Shown here: positions 1 to 32,357 of the stretch, piece by piece
How positions within the stretch are numbered: position 1 is the first letter of the stretch
Layout: every line of letters starts with the position of its first letter
Virus record (IMG/VR): IMGVR_UViG_2675903665_000002
DNA from: a virus
Taxonomy: Duplodnaviria > Heunggongvirae > Uroviricota > Caudoviricetes
Reading direction: 5' to 3' (one strand)
Length of the DNA: 32,357 nucleotides
Notes under the pieces: generated by a model
The model's input: the letters and a program-made list of their open reading frames with translations, nothing else
Databases searched by the model: none
What the model was told of the DNA's origin: nothing
Position numbers and translations under genes: made by a program

Positions 1-409
1 CTTCCTCTTCCTCTTCCTCTGGTAACTCCTTTTGTAACGCTGTTGGCGTTACTTTTTGCGTTACTCGTTTTCGATGCTCTGCCACTCTTCTATTCGTAAG
101 TGCACGTTTTTTCGATGATTCTCCATTGTGTCGCTCAAAGTTTGGAAGAATTAGTTTGCCGTCATGATAAGCAAGCCATCCGACGCTAATGAGGGCGTCA
201 GCAAATCCTGTAATAAAAGCGAGTCTATCAAGTACTCCTTTTGTAACGCTGCCAGCGTTACCGTCTATTGTTTGCTGGTCAGCCCATGCCCATATACGAA
301 CCAGCTTTCCAAGAACAGCATCTGGATCAATACCCAGAATTTCTGCTATCTGAAAAATTTCAGGTTTATCAGGAGTGATAACTTCAACCTTAATCCAGCT
401 GCTTGCCAT
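1..409 (-). CDS. Replication initiation protein, O-like, N-terminal part; gene wraps the window junction and continues at 31910..32357
   Basis: ATG at 409-407 preceded by GAGGGG SD. Hand translation MASSWIKVEVITPDKPEIFQIAEILGIDPDAVLG... runs into a poly-Glu linker at positions 2-19. Reading frame is continuous with ORF 31910..32302 through the duplicated 26 nt. Sits immediately upstream of the lambda P-like gene. Confidence 0.7.
   Translation of the reverse strand, partial: MASSWIKVEVITPDKPEIFQIAEILGIDPDAVLGKLVRIWAWADQQTIDGNAGSVTKGVLDRLAFITGFADALISVGWLAYHDGKLILPNFERHNGESSKKRALTNRRVAEHRKRVTQKVTPTALQKELPEEEEEE
27..66. repeat. Candidate origin iteron copy 1 (TCCTTTTGTAACGCTGttgGCGTTAC) plus tandem GCGTTACT x2
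   Basis: A 26-mer at 27-52 recurs at 237-262 with 3 mismatches. It contains inverted arms GTAACGC/GCGTTAC. The two copies lie in different protein contexts inside the O-like gene, so conservation is at DNA level. Confidence 0.45.
237..263. repeat. Candidate origin iteron copy 2 (perfect 19-bp palindrome GTAACGCTGcCAGCGTTAC)
   Basis: Second copy of the 26-mer, about 210 bp from copy 1 and inside the O-like coding region, analogous to lambda ori lying within gene O. Confidence 0.45.
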
Positions 410-602
410 AGGTTTCCCCTCTTGCACTCTTTAGTGCACAAGCAAATTCATTACGATGGCGGTTGGCGCTATTCATTGCACATTCAACACATGTTCCGTT
501 CAGAACATACCTTTCAGAGAGATGGCCGTGACGGCACCGCTTTCCTGTGAAATAGCGATTTAACCCGGCTTTTGCGGCCTCCATTCTGGTTACTATCTTC
601 AA
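390..602 (-). CDS. Small Cys/His-rich (zinc-finger-like) protein between the Cro-like gene and the replication genes
   Basis: 70-aa ORF with CRHGH...CVEC motif. TTG start at 602 with AGGGG SD about 8 nt upstream (alternative ATG at 584). Its end overlaps the O-like start. Confidence 0.45.
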   Translation of the reverse strand: MKIVTRMEAAKAGLNRYFTGKRCRHGHLSERYVLNGTCVECAMNSANRHRNEFACALKSARGETYGKQLD

Positions 603-750
603 TTTTTCCGCCCCTTTTTGTTATTGATATTGGCTATTTTGCACAATTGGAAAATTTGATCAACCAGATTTGGTTTTTTATTACCTTTGAGGTACGAATA
701 GATATGAAAAGACCGCCGGGTGGCGGTCTACAGAGGGGTGTGGCTGGATA

Positions 751-981
751 TCATGAGTAGAAGAAGTATGCCAGTTCTGCTTTTGAGCGCAGCCATTGTC
801 TTGTTTTACAGGCTTTAAAAAGCCCATTCATCAATACTTTACCTGGCATTTTGCGCTTACCTGTTAAGTGAGTCTGGATATAGTGACTCGTCGTTCCGGC
901 TTCCTGTGCGAAGGCTTCACGCTCATCCGGAGTAAGTGCAAGCCAGTGCTTTTTGAAATCGAAATGTCCGTTATCGCTCAT
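751..981 (-). CDS. Cro-like small HTH DNA-binding regulator
   Basis: 76 aa with a helix-turn-helix-like segment (EAFAQEAGTTSHYIQTHLTGKR). Divergent from the repressor-like gene across an operator cluster. Confidence 0.6.
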   Translation of the reverse strand: MSDNGHFDFKKHWLALTPDEREAFAQEAGTTSHYIQTHLTGKRKMPGKVLMNGLFKACKTRQWLRSKAELAYFFYS

Positions 982-1017
982 AGCTATTGCCTGATATTTA
1001 TTTCAGATAATAAATAT

Positions 1018-1080
1018 TCACCCATAAGGTAACAAAAATCAAGGATAGTTACCCATGAGGTGCATTTACCTGTTGGGTAA
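1018..1080. promoter_or_regulatory. Divergent immunity-region operator cluster: three sites matching TTACC-N5-GGTAA
   Basis: TCACCcataaGGTAA at 1018-1032 (9/10), TTACCcatgaGGTGC at 1049-1063 (8/10), TTACCtgttgGGTAA at 1066-1080 (10/10). Lies between divergent genes 751..981 (-) and 1136..1720 (+). Confidence 0.7.
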
Positions 1081-1135
1081 TATTGCTTTAAATTGAATCA
1101 TCTACTGATTCATATATGAGGCGATTTTCCAGAAA

Positions 1136-1720
1136 ATGAAAAGTATCCAGGACGTCCGCAGGCAAAATCTCAACGACTTGATCGACCGTGAATTCAATGG
1201 TGTTCAGACGCGGATGGCAGAAAAACTTGGAACTCAGGCAAATCTGGTAAACCGCTGGGCTCTTGGCAAGAAGGTTATCGGCGACCAGGTTGCGCGAAAA
1301 ATTGAAGCTGCCGCCAATAAACCACGTAACTGGCTTGATATCGATCGCTCGCTTTCTCAGGAAGGTTTTCAGCCTGTCGGCCCAAGCGACATTGGTCAGC
1401 TGGCGGCTCACAACCTGGAACGCTGGATGAGCGAAAGCCGCGACCTTTCAACTCAGGGAAAACTTCACCGCGCATCCGGCGTCGCCCAGGTGACAATCAG
1501 CCGCCTGTTAAACAATGAGGTCAGTGTTTCCATTTCCACCCTGGAGAATGTTGCATCAGCATTCGGGCGTCACGGCTATGAATTACTGATTCACCCGCAC
1601 GACCCTGCGACCATCAACTATGACCGCTCGCGCTACGCATTGTTACCCGAAACCGAGAAAGCAAAGATCGAAAGTTACATTGAATTTGTCATCAACCAGA
1701 ACGAAAAAAACAAACAATAA
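1136..1720 (+). CDS. Phage repressor-like protein with two tandem XRE-type HTH domains; no LexA-like S24 peptidase domain recognised
   Basis: 194 aa. HTH-like segments near residues 20-60 and 110-150. No obvious SD upstream of the ATG, so possibly leaderless like lambda cI. Followed by an intrinsic terminator. Confidence 0.65.
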   Translation: MKSIQDVRRQNLNDLIDREFNGVQTRMAEKLGTQANLVNRWALGKKVIGDQVARKIEAAANKPRNWLDIDRSLSQEGFQPVGPSDIGQLAAHNLERWMSESRDLSTQGKLHRASGVAQVTISRLLNNEVSVSISTLENVASAFGRHGYELLIHPHDPATINYDRSRYALLPETEKAKIESYIEFVINQNEKNKQ

Positions 1721-1740
1721 AATCATATTTTTCAGTAAGT

Positions 1741-1768
1741 AAGCCGCCTTCTGGCGGCTTTTTTATTG
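1741..1768 (+). terminator. Rho-independent terminator after the repressor-like gene
   Basis: Hairpin AAGCCGCC-ttct-GGCGGCTT followed by a T-run. Confidence 0.75.
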
Positions 1769-1777
1769 CCTATACTA

Positions 1778-1854
1778 TTACCTAATGGGTAATTTTTTTA
1801 ACTCATATCTATTGACATCAAACCAAATACGCATAATTATTACCTCAACGGTAA
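1778..1854 (+). promoter_or_regulatory. Early-left promoter (TTGACA 1812-1817, -10-like TAATTA/AATTAT about 1834-1840) flanked by two perfect operators
   Basis: TTACCtaatgGGTAA at 1778-1792 and TTACCtcaacGGTAA at 1840-1854; the second overlaps the -10/+1 region. Confidence 0.65.
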
Positions 1855-1873
1855 CAGACCGAGGTAACAAGTT

Positions 1874-2026
1874 ATGCAGTGGAAAATCATCAACGGTTGG
1901 TACTGCGTTACTGCATGCGGATTCATGAGCTGGAAGTTCCGCACCTTACAGGAAGGCATTAAGTGGGCTTTCGTCAGCAAAGAAGCTCGCGATGTGGCCA
2001 ACGATAACGAGATATGGGAGGGCTGA
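1874..2026 (+). CDS. Small hypothetical protein (50 aa), first ORF of the early-left operon
   Basis: ATG at 1874 with GAGGT SD 8 nt upstream. Below the size cutoff of the ORF track; found by hand translation. Confidence 0.3.
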   Translation: MQWKIINGWYCVTACGFMSWKFRTLQEGIKWAFVSKEARDVANDNEIWEG

Positions 2027-2028
2027 TA

Positions 2029-2328
2029 ATGAACGTTAATCAGCAGAAAAATCTTCAAAAAATCATGCTGGCATTCGACAAGGACTACCGCCTGTCAGAA
2101 CAGCTATATGACCGACAAGTTGAACTGATCGAGAGCATCCGGCTTCATCAACTGGCCTCAACTTTCGACGCTGTAACAGGTAAAGGCGTTCGCCAGGAAG
2201 TACTGGAGGCCGCTAAAGACAGTCCAGAGTTCGAAGAACTGATGGATTCCTACCGGCGAGAGGCAATGGCAATTATCGCCCGCTGGGATCTGGCGGATCA
2301 GCTTGATGGGCAGAGGGACGCGGCATGA
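2029..2328 (+). CDS. Hypothetical early protein
   Basis: ORF 2014..2328; likely start MNVNQQK at 2029 after GGGAGG. Its stop overlaps the next start (ATGA). Confidence 0.5.
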   Translation: MNVNQQKNLQKIMLAFDKDYRLSEQLYDRQVELIESIRLHQLASTFDAVTGKGVRQEVLEAAKDSPEFEELMDSYRREAMAIIARWDLADQLDGQRDAA

Positions 2329-3146
2329 AACCGGGAATTTATTTCGACATCAGCAACGAAGACTACCACGCCGGTGACGGCGTGAGTAAGTCGCAACTGG
2401 ACATGGTTGCCAAGAATCCGGCGCTTCTTAAATGGGTTCAGGCAGCACCAGAAGACGAAGAGAAAAAGTCTGCACTGGATATGGGAACCGCATTGCACTG
2501 TCTGCTTCTGGAGCCTGGAGAGTTCGACAAACGCTTCATTGTTTCACCGAAATTCGATCGTCGGACGAAACAAGGTAAAGCTGACGAAGAGGCATTTCTT
2601 CGTGATATTGCGGATATGGGGATTTCGGTACTTGATGCAGAGCAGTGGCGGAAACTGGAGCTGATGCGTGATAGCGCAATGGCTCACCCGGCGGCACGCT
2701 GGATGTTGGAAGCTCCTGGTTACTGCGAAGCATCAATGTACTGGAACGATGAAGAGACTGGTGAGTTGTGCCGCATTCGTCCAGACAAATGGCTGAACGA
2801 GCACAACGTGATCGTCGACGTGAAAAAGGTTGCAGATATGGACCGTTTTGCACGCCACATCGAGGAATTCCGCTACCACGTGCAGGACGCAATGTACCGC
2901 GAAGGCGCAATGAGGGTTACTGGTCAGCCGCATGGTTTTTTCTTTCTTGCCGTGAGCGAAAGCATTGATTGTGGTCGGTATCCGGTACGCGTGTTCGAGC
3001 TGGATGAGCCGGATGTCGATGCCGGGCACGCTCTGTTCCGCCGGGATCTGAATACCTATCACGAATGCCGCATCAACGATGAATGGGGCGGAGTGGAAAT
3101 TATTAAACGCCCTGACTGGGCACGTAAACAGGATATGTACGTATGA
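2325..3146 (+). CDS. RecE-like 5'-3' exonuclease, PD-(D/E)XK fold
   Basis: 273 aa with a D...(E/D)xK-like motif (RPDK...VIVDVKK). Translationally coupled to the downstream annealing protein, the typical exo/annealase pair. Confidence 0.6.
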   Translation: MKPGIYFDISNEDYHAGDGVSKSQLDMVAKNPALLKWVQAAPEDEEKKSALDMGTALHCLLLEPGEFDKRFIVSPKFDRRTKQGKADEEAFLRDIADMGISVLDAEQWRKLELMRDSAMAHPAARWMLEAPGYCEASMYWNDEETGELCRIRPDKWLNEHNVIVDVKKVADMDRFARHIEEFRYHVQDAMYREGAMRVTGQPHGFFFLAVSESIDCGRYPVRVFELDEPDVDAGHALFRRDLNTYHECRINDEWGGVEIIKRPDWARKQDMYV

Positions 3147-4024
3147 GCAATGATATCGCAATCACATCACAACCAGGCGCAACTGTAGGCACTGCTGCGG
3201 CAATCTTCAGCCCCGAGGGCATGAATCAACTGGTGCGTTTCGCGGAGTTGATGTCACAAAGCAAAGCGACTGTACCGAAACATCTTGAAGGCAAACCTGC
3301 CGATTGTCTGGCGGTGACCATGCAGGCGGCACAGTGGGGAATGAACCCTTTCGCCGTGGCGCAGAAAACGCATGTGGTAAACGGAACGTTAGGCTACGAA
3401 GCACAGTTGGTAAACGCGGTCGTATCCTCTTCCAGCCTGCTGGCGACACGCCTGAATTATCGCTGGAGCGGTGACTGGTCGAATGTTAACGGCAAAACAG
3501 ATAAATCACCGAATCTGACGGTAACTGTGTCAGCAGTTCTTAAAGGAGAAGCAGAACCCCGTGAGCTTACCATCAGTATGGCGCAAGCCGGAGTGCGTAA
3601 CTCTCCATTGTGGGAACAGGATCCGCGCCAGCAGCTTGCCTATCTTTGCACGAAACGATGGGCTCGCCTGCACGCTCCTGATGTGCTTCTCGGTGTTTAC
3701 ACCCCTGACGAATTACAGGAAACGGCACCGCGCGTTGAGCGAGACATTACTCCGCAAACAACTACTGCTGCGGGAATGAACAGTCTGATCAACGCTAAAC
3801 CAGTGAAAAAGCCTGATGAGCAAACTCGTAAAGCGGATAGCCGTGATCCAGAAGAAATGCTGATGGCCTTTACCAGCGCAGCGATGAATTACAGCACTGT
3901 CTCCGAACTGGATAAGGCTTACAAATACATTGCACAAAAACTTTCAGATGATGACGAACTGCTGGCAAAAGCCACCGACGTTTACAGCGTTCGTCGGGAA
4001 GAATTAAACGAAACATCTATGTAA
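3143..4024 (+). CDS. Single-strand annealing protein, RecT/Red-beta (Bet) family
   Basis: 293 aa. Segment ...WARLHAPDVLLGVYTPDE...ERDITP... resembles the lambda Bet region as remembered. Positioned next to the exonuclease. Confidence 0.75.
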   Translation: MSNDIAITSQPGATVGTAAAIFSPEGMNQLVRFAELMSQSKATVPKHLEGKPADCLAVTMQAAQWGMNPFAVAQKTHVVNGTLGYEAQLVNAVVSSSSLLATRLNYRWSGDWSNVNGKTDKSPNLTVTVSAVLKGEAEPRELTISMAQAGVRNSPLWEQDPRQQLAYLCTKRWARLHAPDVLLGVYTPDELQETAPRVERDITPQTTTAAGMNSLINAKPVKKPDEQTRKADSRDPEEMLMAFTSAAMNYSTVSELDKAYKYIAQKLSDDDELLAKATDVYSVRREELNETSM

Positions 4025-4073
4025 CCACCACCGCGGCGCCACGTGCGCCGCACTGCAACCAAGAGAGGTATTT

Positions 4074-4322
4074 ATGAAAGGTGCATTAGGTAAGAAGGAA
4101 CTCCTGGCGGTGGTGCCACTGTCATGGAGCACTATCGACCGTATGGAGCGCGCAGGTGAATTTCCTAAACGCTGGTATATCACTGACAAACGCTGCGCAT
4201 GGAACCGTGACGAAGTTGAGCGTTGGCTTGATGAACGTCAGGCAGCAAGCCCGGCAGAGTTCCAGGGTAAAAAACCTCCTGTTCAGCAACGTGTATATCG
4301 TCCCGTGAGCAACGCTGCATGA
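4074..4322 (+). CDS. AlpA-family phage transcriptional regulator / excisionase-like HTH protein
   Basis: 82 aa; motif LSWSTIDRMERAGEFPKRWYITDKRCAWNRDEVERWL is typical of AlpA/Xis-like proteins. Confidence 0.7.
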   Translation: MKGALGKKELLAVVPLSWSTIDRMERAGEFPKRWYITDKRCAWNRDEVERWLDERQAASPAEFQGKKPPVQQRVYRPVSNAA

Positions 4323-4431
4323 GTGCGCTGCTAAGGCACTGGATCAAATGGTCAGGATGGTACTTATTCCTGGCCTCTGTTTCAGCATGGCTTTATCTGC
4401 TGGCATTAATTTTCAGAGAGGGTTGGATTAA

Positions 4432-4731
4432 GTGAGAAAGTTAAGCCGACTTGAAAAATATCACATGAATAAGGTTTCAATGCGCAGTCCGTCAAAGATT
4501 GTCGCCGTTACTCCTGCGGCGATAGAGATCGAAAAACGCGCGATTGAAAGAGAGAAAAAAGGGCAGTTCCGCATTGCCGCTCACCTTTGGCTTCAGTGTA
4601 TGGATGTTGCTTCTGGTGATGTTGAGCGTGCAAGGATCGCGGTTCGCAGGGACCAATGTATCACAAAAGGTAACGGCCTTCGCCGTGGAGACTATAGCGG
4701 TATAGGATGTTGCGGGGTGGTTTATGACTAA
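4432..4731 (+). CDS. Hypothetical protein; overlaps the methyltransferase start
   Basis: 99-aa ORF with an 8-nt overlap with the downstream gene. Start uncertain (alternative ATG at 4462). Confidence 0.4.
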   Translation: MRKLSRLEKYHMNKVSMRSPSKIVAVTPAAIEIEKRAIEREKKGQFRIAAHLWLQCMDVASGDVERARIAVRRDQCITKGNGLRRGDYSGIGCCGVVYD

Positions 4732-5374
4732 GAAATACACACTAATCTATGCAGATCCACCCTGGGTATACCGGGACAAAGCCGCAGATGGTAATCGCGG
4801 TGCCAGTTTTAAATATCCGGTTATGAGTGTGATGGATATCTGCCGCCTTCCTGTGTGGGATTTGGCCGATGAAAACTGTCTGTTGGCCATGTGGTGGGTG
4901 CCAACACAACCACTCGAAGCGCTAAAAGTTGTTGAAGCCTGGGGATTCCGTCTGATGACCATGAAGGGCTTCACGTGGATAAAATGTGGTAGTCGACAAC
5001 CAGATAAACTGGTTATGGGTATGGGGCACATGACTCGCGCCAATAGTGAAGATTGCCTGTTTGCGGTAAAGGGAAAACTACCTACGCGCATTAATGCAGG
5101 GATCGTTCAGTCATTTACCGCACCGCGGCTTGAGCATTCAAGAAAACCAGATATCGTTCGTGAAAAACTTGTGCAATTGTTAGGCGATGTTTCTCGCATT
5201 GAACTGTTCGCCAGACAGACGTCTCATGGCTTCGATGTTTGGGGTAATCAGTGCGAAGACCCGGCAGTGCAACTACACCCTGGATACGCGTTGGATATTG
5301 CCGGATTAACAAATGCATTCAGCAATGCTCCGCTGTCACCAACAGACAACCAGGGGCGGGAGCGTGCAGCATGA
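4724..5374 (+). CDS. DNA N6-adenine methyltransferase, MT-A70-like
   Basis: 216 aa with the DPPW catalytic motif (IYADPPWVY) near the N-terminus. Confidence 0.8.
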   Translation: MTKKYTLIYADPPWVYRDKAADGNRGASFKYPVMSVMDICRLPVWDLADENCLLAMWWVPTQPLEALKVVEAWGFRLMTMKGFTWIKCGSRQPDKLVMGMGHMTRANSEDCLFAVKGKLPTRINAGIVQSFTAPRLEHSRKPDIVREKLVQLLGDVSRIELFARQTSHGFDVWGNQCEDPAVQLHPGYALDIAGLTNAFSNAPLSPTDNQGRERAA

Positions 5375-5619
5375 AGCAGATTATGGTTGCACACAACGGC
5401 GTCAGGTTTGAAGTCGTCATGGTTTTGACTAAGTACCGCAATGATGAGGTATTGCAGAGAAAAGAAACTGTAACTTACCGTTATAAACACCGAAGTTCAG
5501 CTGTTAGAAGATTACGGAAGATTACGGAAGAGCTAAAAAATGATCCTCATCGTGTTATTGAGGTAAAAGGCAACCCATATAAAATCACAACTTCAGTGGA
5601 GCTAAGACATATGCAATAA
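5371..5619 (+). CDS. Small hypothetical protein translationally coupled to the methyltransferase
   Basis: ATG overlaps the methyltransferase stop (ATGA). 82 aa. Contains a perfect tandem 10-nt duplication (ATTACGGAAG x2 at 5511-5530). Confidence 0.45.
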   Translation: MKQIMVAHNGVRFEVVMVLTKYRNDEVLQRKETVTYRYKHRSSAVRRLRKITEELKNDPHRVIEVKGNPYKITTSVELRHMQ

Positions 5620-5943
5620 AATCACGCCTGACGAATCGCGATTATCTCGCTATTGGTATTGCAGAGATTGCTGGACTCAGTGGCGCATGATTTGACAATG
5701 CCGCCAGAGCTATCGCATACTGACCGCACTAGAACTTCAAAGCGGTCACCCGCACCCGATAGCTTTGCGGCTTTTTTATGCCTGCAATTTGGCATAGTCA
5801 CATCCGTACAAAGGTCGGGTGGAGAGGCGTAATACAATACCCAAAAGGGGAATATGCCCGGAGCGTCTTTGAAGGCTCTAGTTGACACCCGATCACCAGC
5901 TACTAACTGGTGATTGCTAACTAAAACTTCAAAGGAGGTCATC

Positions 5944-6594
5944 ATGACCAGTCAACTCATCCCCGTATTCAACGGCACTATATCCAACGAAACCGCTCTT
6001 CTCGTTAATGCCCGTGATTTACACACTTTCCTCGATGTGGGTAAGCGATTTGCTTCGTGGATTGTCGAACGAATTGCTGAATATGGTTTCGTTGAAAATC
6101 AAGACTTTATGATTATTTCCCAAGTTCGGGAAAAAATAGGCAGAGGCCGTCCTGCAAAAGACTACCACCTAACCCTCGATACAGCCAAAGAGCTGGCGAT
6201 GGTCGAGCGTAACGAAAAAGGTCGTCAGGTACGACGCTACTTCATTGAATGCGAGAAACGTTTAAGACAACAAGAAACAAAAGTGGAGAAGGTCTTGTCA
6301 GGCTTCATGCCCGCCATTATGGAGGCGATCAAGCTGGAAGACAAAAAAGAATACAGCGCCCCACTGAAGCCCGGCTACCGCAGCCTGATTCACTCGCCGT
6401 CTGGTGTTCTTGGCCTGACGGAGAACTCACTGCTGATGAATCTGCTGAACCAGTTACAGGAAGACGGGCACGACGTATCGGGCGCGGCGGCGGAGCTGAC
6501 CACCATGTTCTGCTACATCGTTGGTGTGAGCAAATGCCTGCGTGATATCCAGACGCACGCGGAGTACATCAACGACAAGGCAGGGTTCTTCTGA
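5944..6594 (+). CDS. Phage antirepressor (Bro-N/AntA-like N-terminal domain)
   Basis: Perfect AGGAGG SD 7 nt upstream of ATG 5944. N-terminal region resembles the AntA/Bro-N antirepressor fold (...ARDLHTFLDVGKRFASWIVERIAEYGFVENQDF...). Confidence 0.7.
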   Translation: MTSQLIPVFNGTISNETALLVNARDLHTFLDVGKRFASWIVERIAEYGFVENQDFMIISQVREKIGRGRPAKDYHLTLDTAKELAMVERNEKGRQVRRYFIECEKRLRQQETKVEKVLSGFMPAIMEAIKLEDKKEYSAPLKPGYRSLIHSPSGVLGLTENSLLMNLLNQLQEDGHDVSGAAAELTTMFCYIVGVSKCLRDIQTHAEYINDKAGFF

Positions 6595-6640
6595 CAGAAC
6601 GGCGGCACAGGGATGTGCCTTTAAATAATTCTGTACAGAT

Positions 6641-6682
6641 TGCAGACTGTGGGTGAATAGCGTACTATTACCTTAAAGGTAA
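6641..6682 (+). promoter_or_regulatory. Promoter-like element with perfect operator upstream of the AT-rich two-gene operon
   Basis: TTGCAG at 6641-6646, 16-nt spacer, TACTAT at 6663-6668, then TTACCttaaaGGTAA at 6668-6682. Confidence 0.55.
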
Positions 6683-6724
6683 ACCTGTTTTTATTTTATA
6701 CCTGTAACTTACCGGAGATTAAAG

Positions 6725-7051
6725 ATGACAAAACTTGGATTCGTGATGAGAGGTCCGGTAAGAAGCGGAACTCATGCAAAGCGTAGCAAGAGTCGTATTT
6801 TTACTGGTAAGGTTGTAGCACGTAAATCAGCTATTGGCTCGTTCAATAGTGAAAATGCGGCATTGCGCCATATTTTTATCAGCACAAAGCCAAGAGCATC
6901 CGCTGATGTGCATACAATGTCTATTCCTATCACAAAGAATATAAAGCGGATAAAAAAGCTCTCATCTGCAGAATCAAAAGAGATATCTTTCCGCCAGCTT
7001 AACTCATTAGAAACGCATATGAAGGAAGAGGAATTCGATGTTTTTGAGTGA
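6725..7051 (+). CDS. Hypothetical small basic protein (108 aa), first gene of an AT-rich accessory pair
   Basis: GGAG SD 8 nt upstream of the ATG. AT-rich relative to flanking phage genes, with several AGA and ATA codons. Stop overlaps the start of the next gene. Confidence 0.6.
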   Translation: MTKLGFVMRGPVRSGTHAKRSKSRIFTGKVVARKSAIGSFNSENAALRHIFISTKPRASADVHTMSIPITKNIKRIKKLSSAESKEISFRQLNSLETHMKEEEFDVFE

Positions 7052-7550
7052 GTATAGCGGGAAGGTTATACCTACTGGTGAGTTTAAAACTGATGACTTT
7101 CTGATTTCGCTAAAAGATGCTTTTAAACAACACTGGCGTCATGGTCATCATCCTGATCTGGGAAAAGATACTCTTTTTGAAAGACCAGAGGAAGTATTAG
7201 GCTTCCATCTCAGAAAGGTTCATGTCAATATTGGTGAATATGCATCATATTCATACTCATGTACTGAACAGTGTTGGGATGAGTGGTCATATGGATTGAT
7301 TGATGAACAAGGAAATTACAGGCCAAAACCAACCAGTAACGCATATCTCATATATGCAGTCAATGAAATAAGAGATGCAGCCTTACTAGCTTATTGGGAC
7401 CCGCCCGCACACACCAAAGCTAACGCAAAAGTTTGGATGGATTCCGTATTGAATTTCACAAAATTATTTCATGAACGAACGAATACAGCTCCACTTAGTA
7501 GAAATGTTTATCCGTGGGATTATTCGTACAAATCCAAAAAGCCTGCATAG
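7038..7550 (+). CDS. Hypothetical protein (170 aa), second gene of the AT-rich accessory pair
   Basis: ATG 7038 with GAGG SD; overlaps the upstream gene by 14 nt. No family recognised. Confidence 0.6.
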   Translation: MFLSEYSGKVIPTGEFKTDDFLISLKDAFKQHWRHGHHPDLGKDTLFERPEEVLGFHLRKVHVNIGEYASYSYSCTEQCWDEWSYGLIDEQGNYRPKPTSNAYLIYAVNEIRDAALLAYWDPPAHTKANAKVWMDSVLNFTKLFHERTNTAPLSRNVYPWDYSYKSKKPA

Positions 7551-7631
7551 TAGTTTTTTATGGACGAAACAAAAGTCAGTGCTACACTCATTGACGCCAC
7601 ATTGAGGTGGTTTATAGATGGAAATTTCACA

Positions 7632-7793
7632 ATGAAAAAAGCATTTGCTGCACTGTTCGTTTTGTTGTCTCTGGTAGCTTCAACTCAGGCCTTTGCCGGT
7701 CGTTGTCAGCACGACAGCGACACTGCTGCTGACGGCTCCCGCTGCGGTGGGCGTTCTGCGGATTCCCGCCCGGGTGGCGGTGGCATTCGTTAA
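7632..7793 (+). CDS. Small secreted Gly-rich protein (53 aa) with N-terminal signal peptide
   Basis: MKKAFAALFVLLSLVASTQAFA signal-like N-terminus. ORF-track start at 7560 is probably too far upstream. Weak RBS. Confidence 0.4.
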   Translation: MKKAFAALFVLLSLVASTQAFAGRCQHDSDTAADGSRCGGRSADSRPGGGGIR

Positions 7794-7815
7794 AAACAAG
7801 GCCGCGAAAGCGGCC
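7791..7815 (-). terminator. Intrinsic terminator closing the long - strand structural operon
   Basis: GGCCGC-GAAA-GCGGCC hairpin; on the - strand it is followed by TTGTTTTTA. Confidence 0.65.
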
Positions 7816-7816
7816 T

Positions 7817-7832
7817 GTGACATGTCACACTA
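7817..7832. repeat. 16-mer GTGACATGTCACACTA, copy 1 (palindromic core TGTGACATGTCACA)
   Basis: Identical 16-mer recurs at 27852-27867. Both copies sit at a gene stop next to a - strand terminator, at the two boundaries of the structural operon. Confidence 0.6.
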
Positions 7833-8390
7833 CATTGATATATGATTCATAAAGTAGCTTAAAGATTTACTTCCCAGAAAAGAAATTTCTTTTCCTGGAT
7901 ATGTCGCAATAATTGAGCATGACTTATCCCCGTTAGAGGTAACAAATCCTGAATAACCTACTTGTTCTTTACCATTTTGTTGCTTGGCTAAAAAGTAGAG
8001 GTAGCTTATCTTTTTGCCCTCTGGGTAAAACTCTGCCAAACCAGTATCGGTGATTGAATATTTTATTCTCCCGCCTTGAGTAACGTTTTCCATCTCAAGT
8101 TTAGCTATGTCTTTTCTGTTGTATTCAGCATTGATTTTCCTTTCGAAATCAATGTTGTTTTCAAATGAGTAGGAAGCAACAGTCTGAATAGATGGGAACA
8201 CGTTTATCTGGATGCCTCCACAGTCGGCACAGGTATAAAGGTATGAATCAGATGGAATCCCCATAAAAGAAAACTGAGTTACCTTAAATTTATCGCTATC
8301 TCCAAAGTATTGAAGTTCGCATTTAACATTTTGCCCTGCAAAAGAAAATGCAGACATCAATATTGAAACAAAAAATATAATTGCCTTCAT
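7830..8390 (-). CDS. Secreted or lipoprotein-like accessory protein (186 aa), AT-rich
   Basis: N-terminal signal peptide MKAIIFFVSILMSAFSFAGQ. Last gene of the - strand operon. Composition differs from the neighbouring structural genes. Confidence 0.6.
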   Translation of the reverse strand: MKAIIFFVSILMSAFSFAGQNVKCELQYFGDSDKFKVTQFSFMGIPSDSYLYTCADCGGIQINVFPSIQTVASYSFENNIDFERKINAEYNRKDIAKLEMENVTQGGRIKYSITDTGLAEFYPEGKKISYLYFLAKQQNGKEQVGYSGFVTSNGDKSCSIIATYPGKEISFLGSKSLSYFMNHISM

Positions 8391-8392
8391 TA

Positions 8393-10945
8393 TTATTTAC
8401 CTAGCATGAACTGCGATGGTGGGATCAGAAAGTCGTTACCCTGCTCACGCTCAACACGGCGCTGATAACGCTCAAGAGAGCCTGGGTCAAGGGCATCTTG
8501 TATCCGGTTCAATATTAAACCATTCATCGCCGTACGAAGCCAGAACACGTTGAGGAATGGCGTATTGTCAAGTGCCGTGCGATACCAGTCACCCAAATCT
8601 GCATCCCCTCTCGTGGTCTGCTGGAGCAGCGTGATAATGCTGTCAGCGTTCGATGCTGCTGGCCCCATTAGCGACGTAACCGGCCCGGCCCCCATGCGGT
8701 TGACCTCGCCAAACATGAAGTCACCCAAGATGCCAAGACCGCCCCCCTGAGATGCGGCTGCGAGAAACGTCTTGGCATCTGCCGGGCGTGGTGTTTGCCC
8801 TTTCAGCATGAGTTTTGACTGCATGGAGATATAACCAAACATAGTCGCCCAGACAAAGAGGTTTGCAGCACCAAGGAAAGCCCCCTTCCCGTTACGTAGC
8901 AGCGCATTCGTCAGCGATCCGGTTTTCGACTCACCAAGCCCAGCAGGAATATAACCACGCCCGAATACTTCGCGTCCTAGTACGTTCTGCATGAAGCTTG
9001 CAGTGAACGATTTGTACTGACCAGCGAATCGTATTGCTTCCCCAGCCACCGTTCCTGGCACCGTGCCCATCTTCATAAACGCCTGCGTGCGATCGCCAGG
9101 CTCTGACATGGCGATATTCAGGCGGTCAAGGATGTAGCCGCGCAACTGCCCTTCCAATTGATCGCGTGCGTCAGCGATAGCGCGCTGCGTTGGTTTGATC
9201 CCCTTACTCTCTACATAACCGGCAATCACTTCGTCAGGCACGCCGCGGATGCCGCTGGTCGTCATGAACTTACGACCTTCGCTATCGGCCATGTCCATGT
9301 TGCGAAAAATTTCCCACTCACGTTCGCCAATACCGTGCAGATCCAGCACGCGTCGCAGGTCTTCCGGTAGCCGCGCATGAGACTGGTCAGCATTCTTTGC
9401 AAGCCAGTTGGTTATCATCATGGCGTTGCTGTTGCGACCGCTCTCGGTCCAGAAGTTCATGAGGTTGTACTTAAAGAAAAGCTGCTGCGCGCGACCAAGC
9501 TTTCCATTCAGCGTGTCATCACCAGATATGCGCCGGATGATTTCCTGCGTCATGGAGTCGGAATAAACTCCGATAGAGGAAAGGATCTCTTTCTGCTCCG
9601 CGCTGTTGTAACGCGTGAAGCGGCCTCTCATAGCACCAAGCAACGCCTGCATAAAATTCTGCCCTTGGTAGCGCATCTCGGTAGCGGCGATAGGCACGTC
9701 GTTAAACGATGAGATTACCGCGCCACCAAGTTGGCTCATACGCAACCAGCCGCGTACAGCCGCCGACGCATTGGCCCAGCCTACGCTGCCAGGAATATTT
9801 AGCGAGCCGTCAACCTGCGGCATTACGGTACGGTTAATGCGACGCACCTTCGTCATGTAGTCAGCCAACGCTGCCGGTCTTCCGGATTTGCTGATATCTT
9901 CAGCAATGGCGTCCGTCAGGTACTTAAACATGTTCTGTGGGTTAGTGCCCAGTACGCGCATCATGCCCGTTGTGCGGGCAGCGCTGTTTAAGCCACCAAA
10001 CAGCGCTTCTCGCAGGCTGCCGGTGCCGAATTGCTGGTTGTACTCGTGCCACGAGATACCATCTTTGAAGTGCAAAATTCGCTCTTGGCTGGCGCGTTTA
10101 GCTGCGTTCGCCGATCCCTTAAAGCCATTCATCCAATCGGGCTTTTCAGATGTAAGATGCACGCCGGAAGCCAGCCCGTTATAAATGTTACGCGTGAACT
10201 GCTCGCGGTCAGCCACGCCGTCAAAAGTGCGCTCATCAAGGCGCGGGAGAATAGCATTTCGCCATGCTTCATAACCTGCGGCGCGGATCTTCATGATGTC
10301 GTGTGACTGGCGCACTATATAGCCCGGCTCTTTGCGTATCCATGCCCCGGCGCGGTTCTCATCAATGCGCGCAGTTTCCTGCCATTTCATGATGATTTGT
10401 GCAGCGCTTACGGATTGCTTTGTCATACCGTCAGTTGACTGCCCGCGCCCTATGCGCCACATTGCATCGGCAATTTCCCGGTCATTGCTGCCGCTGGCGA
10501 TGAATTGCACCAGCCCGGCACGGTCAAAATCGTAGTTGATACCGGAATGATACTTGCCGCGCAGTTGCGCCACCTCCGAAGATACCGACCGGCGGGCGCC
10601 GGTACGCGCATCGTTGCGGCCAACCAGCATTGCTTCAAGCCCGATATCCGGGCGGTCTTTCCAGATAGTACGAAGCTCTCTAAGTCGTTGTGCGGCAATA
10701 CGGGCGTTGATTGCCTTATTGCGAGCCTCAATCTGTTTTGCCAGCATATCGGCATTGCTCAGTTCTTCCGCTGCGCGCATCGCGGCCTCTTCCAGAGACA
10801 GCGCCTCATTGGTCGCCAGAATTCGCCTAGTGGTGTCGTTCATGTCACGCACCAGCGACTCCATCTCATCGGAAGAAAGCTCGCGACCAGCGGCAGCATT
10901 TACACTGCGCTCGCACTGCGTCAAAAATTCGTTTGCTGCCATCAC
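8393..10945 (-). CDS. Large internal virion / DNA-ejection protein (850 aa)
   Basis: Position at the end of the internal-core protein block. Start overlaps the upstream stop (ATGA). Confidence 0.55.
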   Translation of the reverse strand: MMAANEFLTQCERSVNAAAGRELSSDEMESLVRDMNDTTRRILATNEALSLEEAAMRAAEELSNADMLAKQIEARNKAINARIAAQRLRELRTIWKDRPDIGLEAMLVGRNDARTGARRSVSSEVAQLRGKYHSGINYDFDRAGLVQFIASGSNDREIADAMWRIGRGQSTDGMTKQSVSAAQIIMKWQETARIDENRAGAWIRKEPGYIVRQSHDIMKIRAAGYEAWRNAILPRLDERTFDGVADREQFTRNIYNGLASGVHLTSEKPDWMNGFKGSANAAKRASQERILHFKDGISWHEYNQQFGTGSLREALFGGLNSAARTTGMMRVLGTNPQNMFKYLTDAIAEDISKSGRPAALADYMTKVRRINRTVMPQVDGSLNIPGSVGWANASAAVRGWLRMSQLGGAVISSFNDVPIAATEMRYQGQNFMQALLGAMRGRFTRYNSAEQKEILSSIGVYSDSMTQEIIRRISGDDTLNGKLGRAQQLFFKYNLMNFWTESGRNSNAMMITNWLAKNADQSHARLPEDLRRVLDLHGIGEREWEIFRNMDMADSEGRKFMTTSGIRGVPDEVIAGYVESKGIKPTQRAIADARDQLEGQLRGYILDRLNIAMSEPGDRTQAFMKMGTVPGTVAGEAIRFAGQYKSFTASFMQNVLGREVFGRGYIPAGLGESKTGSLTNALLRNGKGAFLGAANLFVWATMFGYISMQSKLMLKGQTPRPADAKTFLAAASQGGGLGILGDFMFGEVNRMGAGPVTSLMGPAASNADSIITLLQQTTRGDADLGDWYRTALDNTPFLNVFWLRTAMNGLILNRIQDALDPGSLERYQRRVEREQGNDFLIPPSQFMLGK

Positions 10946-24199: not shown

Positions 24200-24236
24200 T
24201 TGACATTTAACGCGTGAATTATTACCTTTCGGGTAA
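24200..24236 (+). promoter_or_regulatory. Promoter (TTGACA at 24200-24205) with perfect operator for the tRNA transcription unit
   Basis: TTACCtttcgGGTAA at 24222-24236 positioned where a -10 element would be expected. Confidence 0.55.
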
Positions 24237-24838: not shown

Positions 24839-24857
24839 TTACCTTAAAGGTATAATC
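24839..24857 (+). promoter_or_regulatory. Near-consensus operator (TTACCttaaaGGTAT, 9/10) fused to TATAAT, directly upstream of the membrane-protein gene
   Basis: Same TTAAA spacer as the 6668 site. TATAAT at 24851-24856. Confidence 0.5.
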
Positions 24858-27148: not shown

Positions 27149-27741
27149 TGATTACCATCCTGACGTTCTTTGAGTCGCTTCCTGGCTGCTGCTATGCGAT
27201 CAGCAATTGTCACATTCACATTAACATCCAGACGTTCTTTGAATGCGTTGACATCAACATGCTTACCAATCAGCTCAAGGTTCTTCACCTTGTCAGGCCA
27301 TTTAATTTTTTTGAGGATTGTCTCTATTGAATCCTCGTTCATGTTCATGATGGTCGATGACAGATCAAAGCCACTAAGCGTAGTGCGCCAGATTTTCGGC
27401 CACTCACGGATTGGTTTAAGGCTCCCATCGTCGTTGAGGATGTCGATCACGTCCATCTGGTCGATCTCCACCAGGCGCATGAGAACGTAATCAGCACTGA
27501 CACGCATTCGTTTGTTGCGCTCCTCCATCAACTCGGCAATCCGTTTCTGAATGCGTTCATCGCGCATCATGACACTGGCTTTAACTGCCGCTGTATTTGG
27601 GGAGAATCCTGCGTTAATCGCAGCCTGAGTCTGGTTTTCAGGCGTTTTGATGTATGACTGGCAATAAGCCTCCTGCATTGCTGTGAGCGGCTTAAATTGC
27701 GTTGATTTGCGTTTATAGGTTTTAGGTTCAGCAGGCATCAT
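27145..27741 (-). CDS. Terminase small subunit
   Basis: N-terminal LTAMQEAYCQSYIKTPENQTQAAINAGFSPNTAAVKA... resembles the Terminase_2-type small subunit. Start set at ATG 27741 (MMPAEP..., GGTGG SD) rather than the TTG at 27819. Confidence 0.75.
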   Translation of the reverse strand: MMPAEPKTYKRKSTQFKPLTAMQEAYCQSYIKTPENQTQAAINAGFSPNTAAVKASVMMRDERIQKRIAELMEERNKRMRVSADYVLMRLVEIDQMDVIDILNDDGSLKPIREWPKIWRTTLSGFDLSSTIMNMNEDSIETILKKIKWPDKVKNLELIGKHVDVNAFKERLDVNVNVTIADRIAAARKRLKERQDGNQ

Positions 27742-27758
27742 AACCACCGTGGTAATTG

Positions 27759-27781
27759 TTACCGTTGTGGTAATAATACCA
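27759..27781 (-). promoter_or_regulatory. Candidate late promoter: extended -10 (TGgTATTAT on the - strand) overlapped by a perfect operator
   Basis: TTACCgttgtGGTAA at 27759-27773. The - strand reads catgGTATTATTACC, so the operator covers the predicted start site 18 nt upstream of terS. Confidence 0.5.
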
Positions 27782-30210: not shown

Positions 30211-30638
30211 TGGATGACTCCTTTACGAAGCTGTTCAGCAATACTTACGCATATCTCTGCGCCTCTAATCAGCCCCGGAACGTTCTTGTTTGGCCCAACT
30301 TCACCATCAACAAAATCAATCATCGCGTTACGAGCCATATCCACGCCCTGCGCCCGCACTTCAGCCAGGAAAGCGTCGGTGGCTGGGGTTTCCGTGAAGT
30401 TGTCCTCCCAACCGTAGTACTCCTGACGACAGAAGTTATTAAATTCCTTCTCCGACTGTTTAAGCCCCGCATTCTCCGCCGCCAGCGCATTAGCACGCAC
30501 CAGTTGCACTTCCAGTTGCGTTGCCAAATCGCTGATCAGCTTTGCCACACTGCGCATATCAACGGCACCACATTCTGCTTTCAGTTCCGAAGCCATCTCA
30601 TGCCCGGCGGCAACTAACCCTTTGATATTACTTTCCAT
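30207..30638 (-). CDS. Hypothetical protein (143 aa)
   Basis: ORF with start/stop coupling to its neighbours. Confidence 0.45.
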   Translation of the reverse strand: MESNIKGLVAAGHEMASELKAECGAVDMRSVAKLISDLATQLEVQLVRANALAAENAGLKQSEKEFNNFCRQEYYGWEDNFTETPATDAFLAEVRAQGVDMARNAMIDFVDGEVGPNKNVPGLIRGAEICVSIAEQLRKGVIQ

Positions 30639-30699
30639 CTTTACCCTCGCTTATCCACATAACTTATTGATTACACTGATAACTAAAAAGATCGTCGAT

Positions 30700-31044
30700 T
30701 CAGAACTCTTCGATGTTCCAGCCACCACCTGCTTTCTTTGGTTTAACCGTTACCCCGATGATTCGGAACGGATACTGATCTGCGGCGACTTTGGTTTTCA
30801 CCCTGGCGTCGTCGGTCCAGAAACCTTTCACTTCGTGCAGTTCCATCTCGCCGGTGGCGAGCATCACAGCAAAATCGGGCGTATAGAACGTGTTGTCAGC
30901 TAACCGCAGCTTGATACCCTCAAATCGATACCAGACGATTTCTCCTGCACGTTTACGCAGCTCAAGGTGCTGGCAATACGCAGATTCTGTTTTGTTCATC
31001 TGTCCTGTTTTGAGTCGACCAAGAGCCTGTATCTGTTTTCTCAT
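30700..31044 (-). CDS. Putative PD-(D/E)XK-type nuclease (114 aa), NinG/RusA-like position
   Basis: D...E-x-K arrangement (TPDFAV...ELHEVKG). Start codon lies 4 nt from an operator that embeds the SD. Confidence 0.4.
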   Translation of the reverse strand: MRKQIQALGRLKTGQMNKTESAYCQHLELRKRAGEIVWYRFEGIKLRLADNTFYTPDFAVMLATGEMELHEVKGFWTDDARVKTKVAADQYPFRIIGVTVKPKKAGGGWNIEEF

Positions 31045-31047
31045 GAT

Positions 31048-31124
31048 TTACCCCTGAGGTAATTAAAAACCACATAAGACACGAAATCAATAGATTTTAG
31101 AATATTTTATTACCTAACGGGTAA
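31048..31124. promoter_or_regulatory. Two perfect operators between the P-like gene and the downstream nuclease-like gene
   Basis: TTACCcctgaGGTAA at 31048-31062 and TTACCtaacgGGTAA at 31110-31124. Confidence 0.65.
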
Positions 31125-31161
31125 TTATCGAAACGTAAAAAAATGCGCTATCGCGCTGGTA

Positions 31162-31938
31162 TTACTTGATAAATCCTGCCGCCTTTCCTCGCCTGTATTC
31201 CTCCATCAGCCACTGCGCCGGTGTTATTCCCCCAAGGGTGGCGGCGTTAGGCATGCACCCGAAACTTCGCCCTGGTGGATGGTAAACGTCTCTCCCTGTG
31301 TCCGGAGGCGTACTCATGGGTTCTGGCTTTGCCTGTATGCTGATCACCGGATCGGGTATCTGCTGTCCGGAAGCCACCTTTTTCGCCCAATCATCGAGCA
31401 GCCTGCGCGCGTGTTTCTCAACCTCTATCTCGCTAAGCTGGCGCTGATACATTGCACGGCGGGTATCACATACGACCCAGTACATAACCGGATGCCGCCA
31501 CGGGAATCTTTCGGGACCACCAGGATATAAACTTTTTTCCTTGCTGTACCGGTGAAACTCCGTCATCACATCGTCAATGGTAACGCCAAGAACCATCTTG
31601 CTGTCTTTACACCACTTGATGAATTGCCCTGGCGACGGCCAGAACGGAGATTCACTGGCGCGGGCGTGGCGCATACCAGCGTTAACCTGTTCCATTGTAG
31701 TGATCCCATTCTCCAGAAACGCAAGCATCCATTGCTTACGGAATTCATTAAGTTTGTTCTGCTCCCTTATGGTCGAAACGCTTGCAGGAAATGCAGCCTG
31801 TAACTGGACAAATAGTTCATTGAAAATTCTAGCAACCTGCTCCTTTTTGCCATTGCTGTCACGCCGCTCTTCATGCACAGCAACACCATGCTCACGTAAG
31901 CGATCGTACTCATTGAGAAGTTCTGGAGTTGATTTCAT
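31162..31938 (-). CDS. P: Replication protein P-like (helicase loader)
   Basis: Segment ...FPASVSTIREQNKLNEFRKQWMLAFLENGITTMEQVNAGMRHARASESPFWPSPGQFIKWC closely resembles the lambda P sequence as remembered. Confidence 0.85.
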   Translation of the reverse strand: MKSTPELLNEYDRLREHGVAVHEERRDSNGKKEQVARIFNELFVQLQAAFPASVSTIREQNKLNEFRKQWMLAFLENGITTMEQVNAGMRHARASESPFWPSPGQFIKWCKDSKMVLGVTIDDVMTEFHRYSKEKSLYPGGPERFPWRHPVMYWVVCDTRRAMYQRQLSEIEVEKHARRLLDDWAKKVASGQQIPDPVISIQAKPEPMSTPPDTGRDVYHPPGRSFGCMPNAATLGGITPAQWLMEEYRRGKAAGFIK

Positions 31939-32357
31939 CCCACACCCCTTCTATCCAGTCAGTGTTATTCCAGTCAAGCTCATCGCTTTTCCCGGCATTT
32001 TTTGATTTTCCCCTGATATGATTTACGTGCCTGGCGAATTTTTGTTCCCACTGAACCTGCGTGAACACTTTGCCCTCAGCCATCCAGTAATCCCGGAATG
32101 CAGCAAGTTCAGCAGGTGTAAATTCCGGTTCCGGCAGGGCCGTTCCCCACAGCGCAGCACGCCGCCGAAAATCTGGCGACGGTAGCCAGCCATCTGTCAT
32201 CGGAAATTTCCCGATGGGTTCACTCAGGCCATCCAGAAATTCAGGTTCTGCCACCTGCAACGGCGTACTGTTCGCTTCACTGGTCGGAGCACCCTCGCGC
32301 ACGTGCGCTATGTGTGGGGTTTTATATATATCTTCCTCTTCCTCTTCCTCTGGTAAC
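31910..32357 (-). CDS. Replication initiation protein, O-like, C-terminal part; continues from 1..409 across the junction
   Basis: ORF 31910..32302 has no credible start of its own (GTG) and stays open upstream through the poly-Glu codons. Frame matches the 1..409 segment. Confidence 0.7.
   Translation of the reverse strand, partial: LPEEEEEEDIYKTPHIAHVREGAPTSEANSTPLQVAEPEFLDGLSEPIGKFPMTDGWLPSPDFRRRAALWGTALPEPEFTPAELAAFRDYWMAEGKVFTQVQWEQKFARHVNHIRGKSKNAGKSDELDWNNTDWIEGVWDEINSRTSQ

Follow-up and report, generated by a model that had tools for sequence, protein, structure and literature searches.

Iteron-bearing origins located inside the initiator gene of an O/P-type replication module are a classical kind of element. 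In bacteriophage λ, the origin (ori) is carried by gene O, which is situated downstream of the cro gene and a terminator and is followed by the loader gene P; four 18-bp iterons occupy the inter-domain linker of the initiator (amino acids 117–145 of 299) and a purine- and A/T-rich stretch adjoins them on the promoter-distal side. In the origin oriL of phage SPP1, located in gene 38, and in iteron plasmids, the origin-binding protein also binds boxes in its own gene and an A/T-rich region adjoins them, the proteins and repeats being unrelated to those described below. The present work concerns a stretch of 32,357 nucleotides from a virus of the Caudoviricetes (IMG/VR record IMGVR_UViG_2675903665_000002), referred to as the window, and more precisely its initiator ('O-like') gene, in which the heptamer GTAACGC and its complement GCGTTAC are repeated. 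An earlier note on this DNA had proposed that such repeats bind the initiator and form a λ-like origin. Conservation, covariation, gene context and position support this proposal, and sequence comparison leads us to conclude, with a probability of about 0.75, that the initiator binds to the heptamers as iterons and that these, together with the adjoining purine/A+T tract, constitute the phage origin, organized like λ ori in gene O.

The locus shares with λ the succession of an initiator gene and a P-type loader gene, the position downstream of a cro-like gene and a terminator, and repeated dyad sites of about 18–19 bp (7-nt arms, 4–5-nt spacer) that lie within the initiator gene at the inter-domain linker, here at amino acids 116–130 of 276. 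The purine- and A/T-rich stretch is likewise promoter-distal, with the same order and polarity. In other respects, the locus departs from λ: no sequence similarity to λ O can be detected in the N-terminal domain, which does not belong to the PF04492 family, the C-terminal domain is DnaT-like, the sites are 7-nt half-sites both direct and inverted with a 12-nt phase, a second cluster lies about 209 bp upstream, and the A/T run spans only 12 nt and is preceded by a (GAGGAA)n tract. The locus is mildly unusual for its class in two respects: its half-site arrays form two clusters, and its conserved purine tract is translated to give a linker.

Other described systems resemble the locus in part. 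DopC, DopE and their phage relatives associate an O-like protein having a DnaT C-terminal motif with a λ P-like protein encoded directly downstream, and no iteron-like repeats were found by the authors at the dopC locus (Brezellec et al. 2017, PMC5509034). The N-terminus of DopC is of the HTH_36 type and related to λ O, whereas the window protein has a different N-terminal family and clear repeats. Escherichia coli DnaT shares the C-terminal three-helix domain (PF17948) binding single-stranded DNA (ssDNA), but its N-terminal part is unrelated and the protein acts in PriA-dependent restart, not in site-specific initiation. The Rac prophage is reported to possess an active origin, oriJ (PMC3945230). 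In the Rac-type prophage of E. coli 442/2 (MN652886), YdaU carries the same N-terminal domain as the window protein together with GTAACGC arrays; in E. coli K-12, the strain that defines oriJ, YdaU differs in having a DUF1376 N-terminal domain and no GTAACGC sites. Rac oriJ was therefore rejected as experimental support for the window origin, the K-12 protein having a different N-terminal domain and different repeats. K-12 ydaU contains repeats of its own (MG1655, locus L024, 3472–3578), of the ATGTTCAAACA type, in four direct copies (one a loose match) and one inverted copy; they sit in the equivalent linker region, are followed by A/T-rich DNA and are possibly the iterons of oriJ. As such, they would fit a general rule of iterons placed in the initiator linker.

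Repeats, tract and initiator protein

End comparison showed that the last 26 nucleotides of the window are identical to the first 26; the window therefore corresponds to a circular contig of 32,331 unique bases. Read across this junction, the minus-strand gene starting at 409 is intact and spans 831 nt for 276 amino acids. The features discussed below are listed here with their window coordinates.

1–409, minus strand: 5′ part of the initiator ('O-like') gene, codons 1–136, with its ATG at 407–409 and a GAGGGG ribosome-binding site upstream.
31910–32331, minus strand: 3′ part of the initiator gene, codons 137–276 and stop, encoding the DnaT-like ssDNA-binding domain and the C-terminal NTDWIxGV tail.
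243–261, no strand assigned: site A dyad, GTAACGC-TGCCA-GCGTTAC, encoding GNAGSVT (amino acids 50–56) in a loop between two helices.
34–52, no strand assigned: site B dyad, GTAACGC-TGTTG-GCGTTAC, encoding VTPTAL in the inter-domain linker and kept in every group-1 relative (groups defined below).
58–64, no strand assigned: extra direct half-site of site B, 12 nt from the dyad half-site at 46–52.
22–28, no strand assigned: degenerate fourth half-site of site B, GTAACTC on the plus strand and GAGTTAC on the coding strand, in the 12-nt phase and abutting the purine tract.
53–124, minus strand: basic helix, codons 96–119 (GESSKKRALTNRRVAEHRKRVTQK), candidate recognition element, whose sequence changes together with the half-site across the family.
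1–20, minus strand: purine tract AGAGGAAGAGGAAGAGGAAG, translated as a poly-Glu linker, with near-invariant synonymous positions; candidate part of the unwinding element.
32320–32331, no strand assigned: A/T-only run, ATATATATAAAA on the coding strand, directly after the purine tract; candidate unwinding element.
32332–32357, no strand assigned: terminal duplicate of 1–26, the contig-end overlap of the circular assembly, with exact 26-nt identity and a junction collinear with phage ZX5.

The core of the locus is a 28-nt repeat present in two copies, at 25–52 and 234–261, which are identical at 25 of 28 positions and spaced by 209 nt from start to start. Each copy contains a 19-bp dyad GTAACGC-N5-GCGTTAC, respectively GTAACGCTGTTGGCGTTAC at 34–52 and GTAACGCTGCCAGCGTTAC at 243–261, the latter being a perfect 9+1+9 palindrome. 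These are the only two matches to the 19-mer dyad pattern in 32 kb, against 0.19 expected from shuffled sequences. Exact heptamers, in either orientation, start at 34, 46, 58, 243 and 255, that is, five within 228 nt. Site B, which encodes the linker that follows the basic helix directly, reads F-F-R-R′ on the coding strand (F and R standing for the forward and reverse half-sites) and is continued without interruption by AGAGGAAGAGGAAGAGGAAG-ATATATATAAAA; the degenerate half-site at 22–28 is an exact GCGTTAC ('ALP' codons GCG TTA CC) in loci L002, L005 and most relatives. The reading frame differs between the two copies, GTA ACG CCA ACA GCG TTA C giving VTPTAL and GGT AAC GCT GGC AGC GTT ACA giving GNAGSVT, within the wider peptides VTPTALQKE and GNAGSVTKG.

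The description in the earlier note largely agrees with these data. The pair of 26-mers with inverted arms that it reported is real and correctly placed at 27–52, its second copy lying at 236–261 instead of 237–262; the different amino-acid contexts of the copies follow from the change of frame, and the tandem GCGTTACT pair is present at 46–53 and 58–65. On the other hand, the moderately AT-rich stretch mentioned for 1–409 is unremarkable, with a lowest GC content of 0.325 at 321–380. Outside the two sites, 13 more GTAACGC copies occur in the window, against 3.35 expected from dinucleotide shuffles, with no shared flanks or extended consensus; since a fifth-order Markov model expects 13.5, we attribute them to sequence composition.

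The low-stability element spans the junction, where the A/T-only run at 32320–32331 adjoins the pyrimidine tract at 1–20. The 30-bp segment starting at 32320 is the least stable duplex in the gene (–32.8 kcal/mol) and ranks at the 99th percentile genome-wide. No DnaA box (with at most one mismatch) and no IHF consensus were found within 500 nt of the junction. The formation of H-DNA by the purine tract was considered and set aside as an account valid for the whole family: by inspection, (GAGAA)n is a mirror repeat and (GAGGAA)n is not.

The initiator protein matches PHROG 2509, 'replication initiation protein' (9e-130). Its C-terminal domain corresponds to Pfam DnaT (PF17948, amino acids 179–249, 1.6e-18) and amino acids 175–251 match the DnaT PDB chains 6aep, 4ou6 and 2ru8 (1e-17 to 1e-20); the full-length DnaT equivalog model NF002770 is missed, with 92 bits against a cut-off of 201 and a match restricted to amino acids 171–252. 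The terminal NTDWIEGV resembles the λ O tail NTDWIYGV (pairwise E = 0.003). Among 20 members scanned, the N-terminal segment of about 115 amino acids matched no Pfam family, giving only noise even at E ≤ 10; it has no match to PF04492 (Phage_rep_O), hhalign to λ O returned a probability of 0.2%, and no homology signal to K-12 YdaU/DUF1376 was obtained. An AlphaFold (AF2) model built from 20 homologues (pLDDT, the predicted local distance difference test, of 69.5) predicts a helical N-terminal domain with helices at 16–25, 29–48, 57–64 and 69–75, a β-hairpin wing at 80–87 and the long basic helix at 96–119.

Conservation and covariation in relatives

The comparison covered four phage records (BUCT554, Klebsiella ST11-OXA245phi3.2, the Rac-type prophage of E. 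coli 442/2 and TL-2011b) and 19 prophage loci, almost all from genera of the Enterobacterales, one of which (L022) originates from a metagenome-assembled genome labelled Akkermansia. It was extended to IMG/VR, where 546 contigs encode a relative and 80 close relatives were examined. In more than 100 related loci, the heptamers occur at the same two places with a phase of about 12 nt. Within 22 non-identical homologues, the heptamers are invariant and the N5 spacers vary freely. The number of half-sites shifts in 12-nt steps corresponding to four-residue 'xNAx' insertions that each add one half-site, and site B is read in frame 0 in the clade of the window and in frame 1 in all others. Third codon positions are conserved at 96% in the heptamers versus 60% at 87 degenerate codons elsewhere in these genes (Mann-Whitney p = 3e-6, codon-aware alignment), and at 89% in the QKALPEEEEEE block (p = 7e-5). 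The 80 close relatives in IMG/VR share the architecture, apart from the occasional loss of a single half-site. The earlier note had considered that absence of the repeats from close relatives keeping the protein would speak decisively against an origin; all relatives with the N-terminal domain keep them.

The sites persist at much larger distances. Metagenomic contigs L106–L108 and L117, with 42–64% identity, retain GTAACG(C) at both places, as does a circular 41-kb plasmid from Pusillimonas, a betaproteobacterium (55% identity), where all five heptamers of 5.2 kb fall in the two sites. This phage-like plasmid (L110, Pusillimonas sp. T7-7, NC_015459, 41,205 bp circular), which carries the same initiator head with its GTAACGC sites, a purine/A-rich tract of 60 nt and an adjoining gene for an ATP-binding (DnaC-like) protein, is one of only two plasmid records with the initiator N-terminal domain; its sequence is suggestive of a candidate natural replicon driven by the cassette. 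In L106, four more half-sites and the purine tract are present beyond the point, inside site B, at which the open reading frame (ORF) ends. Several database entries for the initiator show a truncation or a shift of frame at site B and the purine tract or immediately beyond them (L106 163–700; P0004/P0006 and other short proteins) and the initiator genes of L013 and L015 measure 633 nt; repeat slippage, sequencing error or real two-piece variants could account for such versions.

The purine tract accompanies every array. In all groups described below, the array ends with a half-site followed by CAGAG(AAGAG)n, or by CAGAG(GAAGAG)n in the enterobacterial clade, with A/T-rich DNA next; the purine/A+T enrichment after the array recurs in relatives. 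The tract is (GAGGAA)n, read as poly-Glu, in the window and (GAGAA)n, read as EKRREE, at the equivalent place in distant relatives. Since the encoded peptides differ (EEEEEE, EKRREEKRR, REEKRREEKNKEEK), it is the purine tract, and not the peptide, that is conserved.

A search seeded with L022, the most divergent locus, recovered 66 further relatives, and DNA was obtained for seven of them. The loci can be sorted into four groups according to the basic helix and the half-site.

Group 1 (window, L001–L021, L106–L108, L110, L117): helix ..TNRRVAxHR; half-site GTAACG(C); array (F)1-2 R at site A and (F)1-3 R (...R) at site B.
Group 2 (L022, L112, L113, L114): helix RAESARRM(A/T)K(S/T)R, in L114 RAESNRRMVKSR with the variant ESNRRMVKSR; half-site GTTGCG / CGCAAC; array (GTTGCGgaaat)2-3 ... 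CGCAAC n6 CGCAAC in L112–L114, one direct copy in L022.
Group 3 (L115, L116): helix (N/T)(R/E)RQAKWR; half-site GTAGAC / GTCTAC; three to four direct copies at site A and F(F)R(R) at site B.
Group 4 (L118): helix SERKRLSR; half-site GTGACA / TGTCAC; four copies (weak).

In every locus, the initiator gene contains most or all of the motif copies, and in most loci these are located at the positions of sites A and B; in L114, another three copies are found at other places of the gene. Peptide proxies in 215 family proteins are consistent with this correlation: among them, 'NVAE' linkers accompany the xRM helix in eight cases out of eight (eight of the 13 members with that helix) and 'VDGxVD' linkers accompany the RRQ helix in four out of four. 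A concerted change of one protein segment and of both DNA clusters is what would be expected of a protein that reads these sites.

The N-terminal domain and its sites occur as a cassette fused to at least four different, unrelated C-terminal sequences, and the next gene in relatives always encodes a loader or a helicase (λ P-like, DnaC/IstB-like, DnaB-like or AAA_25). This mobility with varied tails and partners is consistent with origin recognition and helicase recruitment being separate tasks.

Proposed mechanism and alternative explanations

From sequence alone, we propose that dimers of the N-terminal domain would recognize the 19-bp dyads and that further protomers would fill the flanking half-sites at the 12-nt phase, building an oligomeric complex on site B (22–64) that is possibly bridged to the accessory site A (243–261) some 209 bp away. 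This complex would destabilize the adjacent purine tract and A/T run (1–20 and 32320–32331). Judging from domain identities, the DnaT-like domain may bind the exposed single strand and/or, through its λ O-like tail, recruit the P-like loader and the host DnaB. By analogy with λ, rightward early transcription through the gene would activate the origin. Since coding DNA has to accommodate the sites, these fall in a surface loop and in the linker between the domains, where the peptide is free to follow the DNA.

Several observations weigh against this interpretation. The A/T-only run is short and several intergenic regions, promoter regions included, are less stable, the A/T-rich ones at 991–1020, 1771–1800 and 31083–31112 among them. 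The distance between sites A and B does not keep helical phase among relatives (207, 209, 219 and 231 bp) and site A is missing in some of these. Outside group 1, the covariation comes from few DNA sequences (four, two and one for groups 2, 3 and 4). GC skew, a check suggested by the earlier note, was computed and proved uninformative: GC skew and cumulative skew have their minimum near the window ends, but skew follows gene orientation and cannot discriminate.

It is conceivable that the sites bind the initiator but serve autoregulation or copy control, by roadblock, self-repression or handcuffing, the true origin being elsewhere, for example in an A/T-rich intergenic region such as the less stable ones just listed. 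Initiator sites in their own transcription unit could indeed block elongation, and two separated clusters are typical of looping regulators. We nevertheless hold this explanation to be unlikely: an origin elsewhere would lack full sites, as the 19-mer dyad has no other match in the window (isolated heptamers exist), every array has next to it a purine/A+T tract that is conserved as DNA, and the cassette moves only with the N-terminal domain, without any intergenic region. Autoregulation and origin function are, besides, not mutually exclusive. More improbable still is a view of the boundary DNA (last half-site and purine tract) as a recombination linker kept alike by repeated module exchange. 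The family's most conserved 26-mer does stand exactly where different C-terminal domains join one N-terminal domain, and the contig itself breaks there. Such a linker would leave unexplained site A, located inside the N-terminal domain, as well as the invariance of heptamers beside free spacers and the half-site changes that track the helix; moreover, the tract persists at 42–55% identity, in Betaproteobacteria and in metagenome contigs that are uncultured and without taxonomic assignment, cases in which a recent exchange is implausible.

The palindromes might instead act in RNA, either by forming hairpins in the mRNA or by serving as intrinsic terminators for antisense transcription. Both dyads are terminator-like on the plus strand, TTTTT follows the one at 34–52, and the predicted hairpins reach –9 to –15 kcal/mol (z –1.6 to –3.9). 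We give this reading very little credence, since compensatory changes never occur in the stems, whose arms do not vary inside a given specificity group, since many arrays consist of direct repeats only and are unable to pair (such as the four direct GTAGAC copies at site A of L115), and since the T-tail is absent at site A and not conserved, with no antisense promoter-like site upstream. Finally, the repeats could be fortuitous or the by-product of a repeated peptide motif, as the genome-wide frequency of GTAACGC, which the fifth-order model reproduces, might suggest. The 19-mer is found solely at the two sites despite its low expectation, its copies are read in different frames and their synonymous positions are conserved; on these comparative sequence data, we consider a chance origin excluded.

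Beyond the interpretation of the heptamers as an origin, a broader proposal can be formulated, which we advance tentatively and at slightly less than even odds. The purine tract, (GAGAA)n or (GAGGAA)n, would be a family-wide cis element, the site of first strand opening or of helicase delivery, of which the charged linker is merely the translation, and a single basic helix would reprogramme half-site specificity (GTAACG, GTTGCG, GTAGAC, GTGACA). Jointly, they would form a portable 'initiator head plus origin' cassette recombining with different helicase-recruiting tails in thousands of phages and prophages across several phyla.

Contig junction, neighbouring genes and significance

Judging by its sequence, the window phage is a relative of the epsilon15/phiV10-like podoviruses (Uetakevirus): region 1–1100 shares 99.5% identity with phages ZX5 and HEMP4 and 99.4% with TL-2011b. 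Across the circular join, the sequence is collinear with that of ZX5, which was obtained independently, window 30469–32357 corresponding to ZX5 16764–14876 and window 1–5375 to ZX5 14901–9527; the two matches overlap in ZX5 by exactly 26 nt, and the initiator gene measures 831 nt in both. The contig ends meet in the (CTTCCT)n tract, as the earlier note had recognized. Since the terminal 26 nt are duplicated, this tract occurs twice in the window and is not split; once circularized, it contains three hexamers encoding six Glu. The suspicion that the repeat had been collapsed by assembly finds no support in the ZX5 comparison, and the idea that its copy number varies between isolates is borne out by the 80 close relatives, whose purine tracts are between 14 and 34 nt long, with lengths that differ mostly by 6-nt units. 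The ends thus meet in the most conserved 26-mer of the family, GTTACCAGAGGAAGAGGAAGAGGAAG, at the domain boundary, and short-read assemblies may break at this invariant sequence if a genome carries two family members.

The 32.3-kb circle is shorter than the 39.6-kb genome of ZX5 and is without integrase, lysis cassette and tail-fibre gene (window 5376–7830 versus 1350–9527 in ZX5, locus L109). The methyltransferase gene (4724–5374) is directly followed by an AntA-type antirepressor gene (5914–6594) and small ORFs, one of which has a weak YafO-toxin match. Either the element itself is defective or has undergone deletion, or the shortened circle results from an assembly shortcut.

Around the initiator gene, the layout is that of a lambdoid early-right region. 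Upstream are found a small ORF, a terminator-like hairpin and a cro-like gene, all of which face a repressor-like gene with two helix-turn-helix motifs; the downstream gene is the following.

31162–31938, minus strand: λ P-like helicase loader gene, overlapping the end of the initiator gene (Phage_lambda_P PF06992, 1.6e-55; PHROG 109, 4e-89).

The hairpin, at 710–729 on the minus strand (AGACCGCCACCCGGCGGTCT then TTTCAT), is strong and occupies a tR1-like position between the cro-like gene (751–981) and the small ORF. A distinct inverted repeat, TTACC-N5-GGTAA with at most one mismatch, occurs 13 times in the window against 0.41 expected, at 681–695, 1018–1032, 1066–1080, 1778–1792, 1840–1854, 6668–6682, 8014–8028, 24222–24236, 24839–24853, 27741–27755, 27759–27773, 31048–31062 and 31110–31124. 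At least the copies around 680–1080, 1780–1850 and 31050–31120 coincide with A/T-rich stretches between ORFs, and the whole looks like a genome-wide operator set of a phage regulator, separate from the GTAACGC sites.

In the searchable literature, we found neither an origin described for the Uetakevirus phages TL-2011b, ZX5 and HEMP4 nor any mention of the motif as an iteron. The analysis therefore provides a concrete and testable candidate origin for these epsilon15/phiV10-like phages. It also concerns a large initiator family (8,695 clusters at 50% identity with E ≤ 0.001, of which 1,660 with E ≤ 1e-30), whose N-terminal domain has no Pfam model. The locus exemplifies how DNA signals shape a protein, four-residue loop insertions each adding a half-site and a poly-Glu linker being the translation of a purine tract. 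The basic-helix and half-site variants constitute a ready-made specificity code drawn from comparative data, and this code could predict the incompatibility of prophage replicons or help to engineer orthogonal phage replicons.

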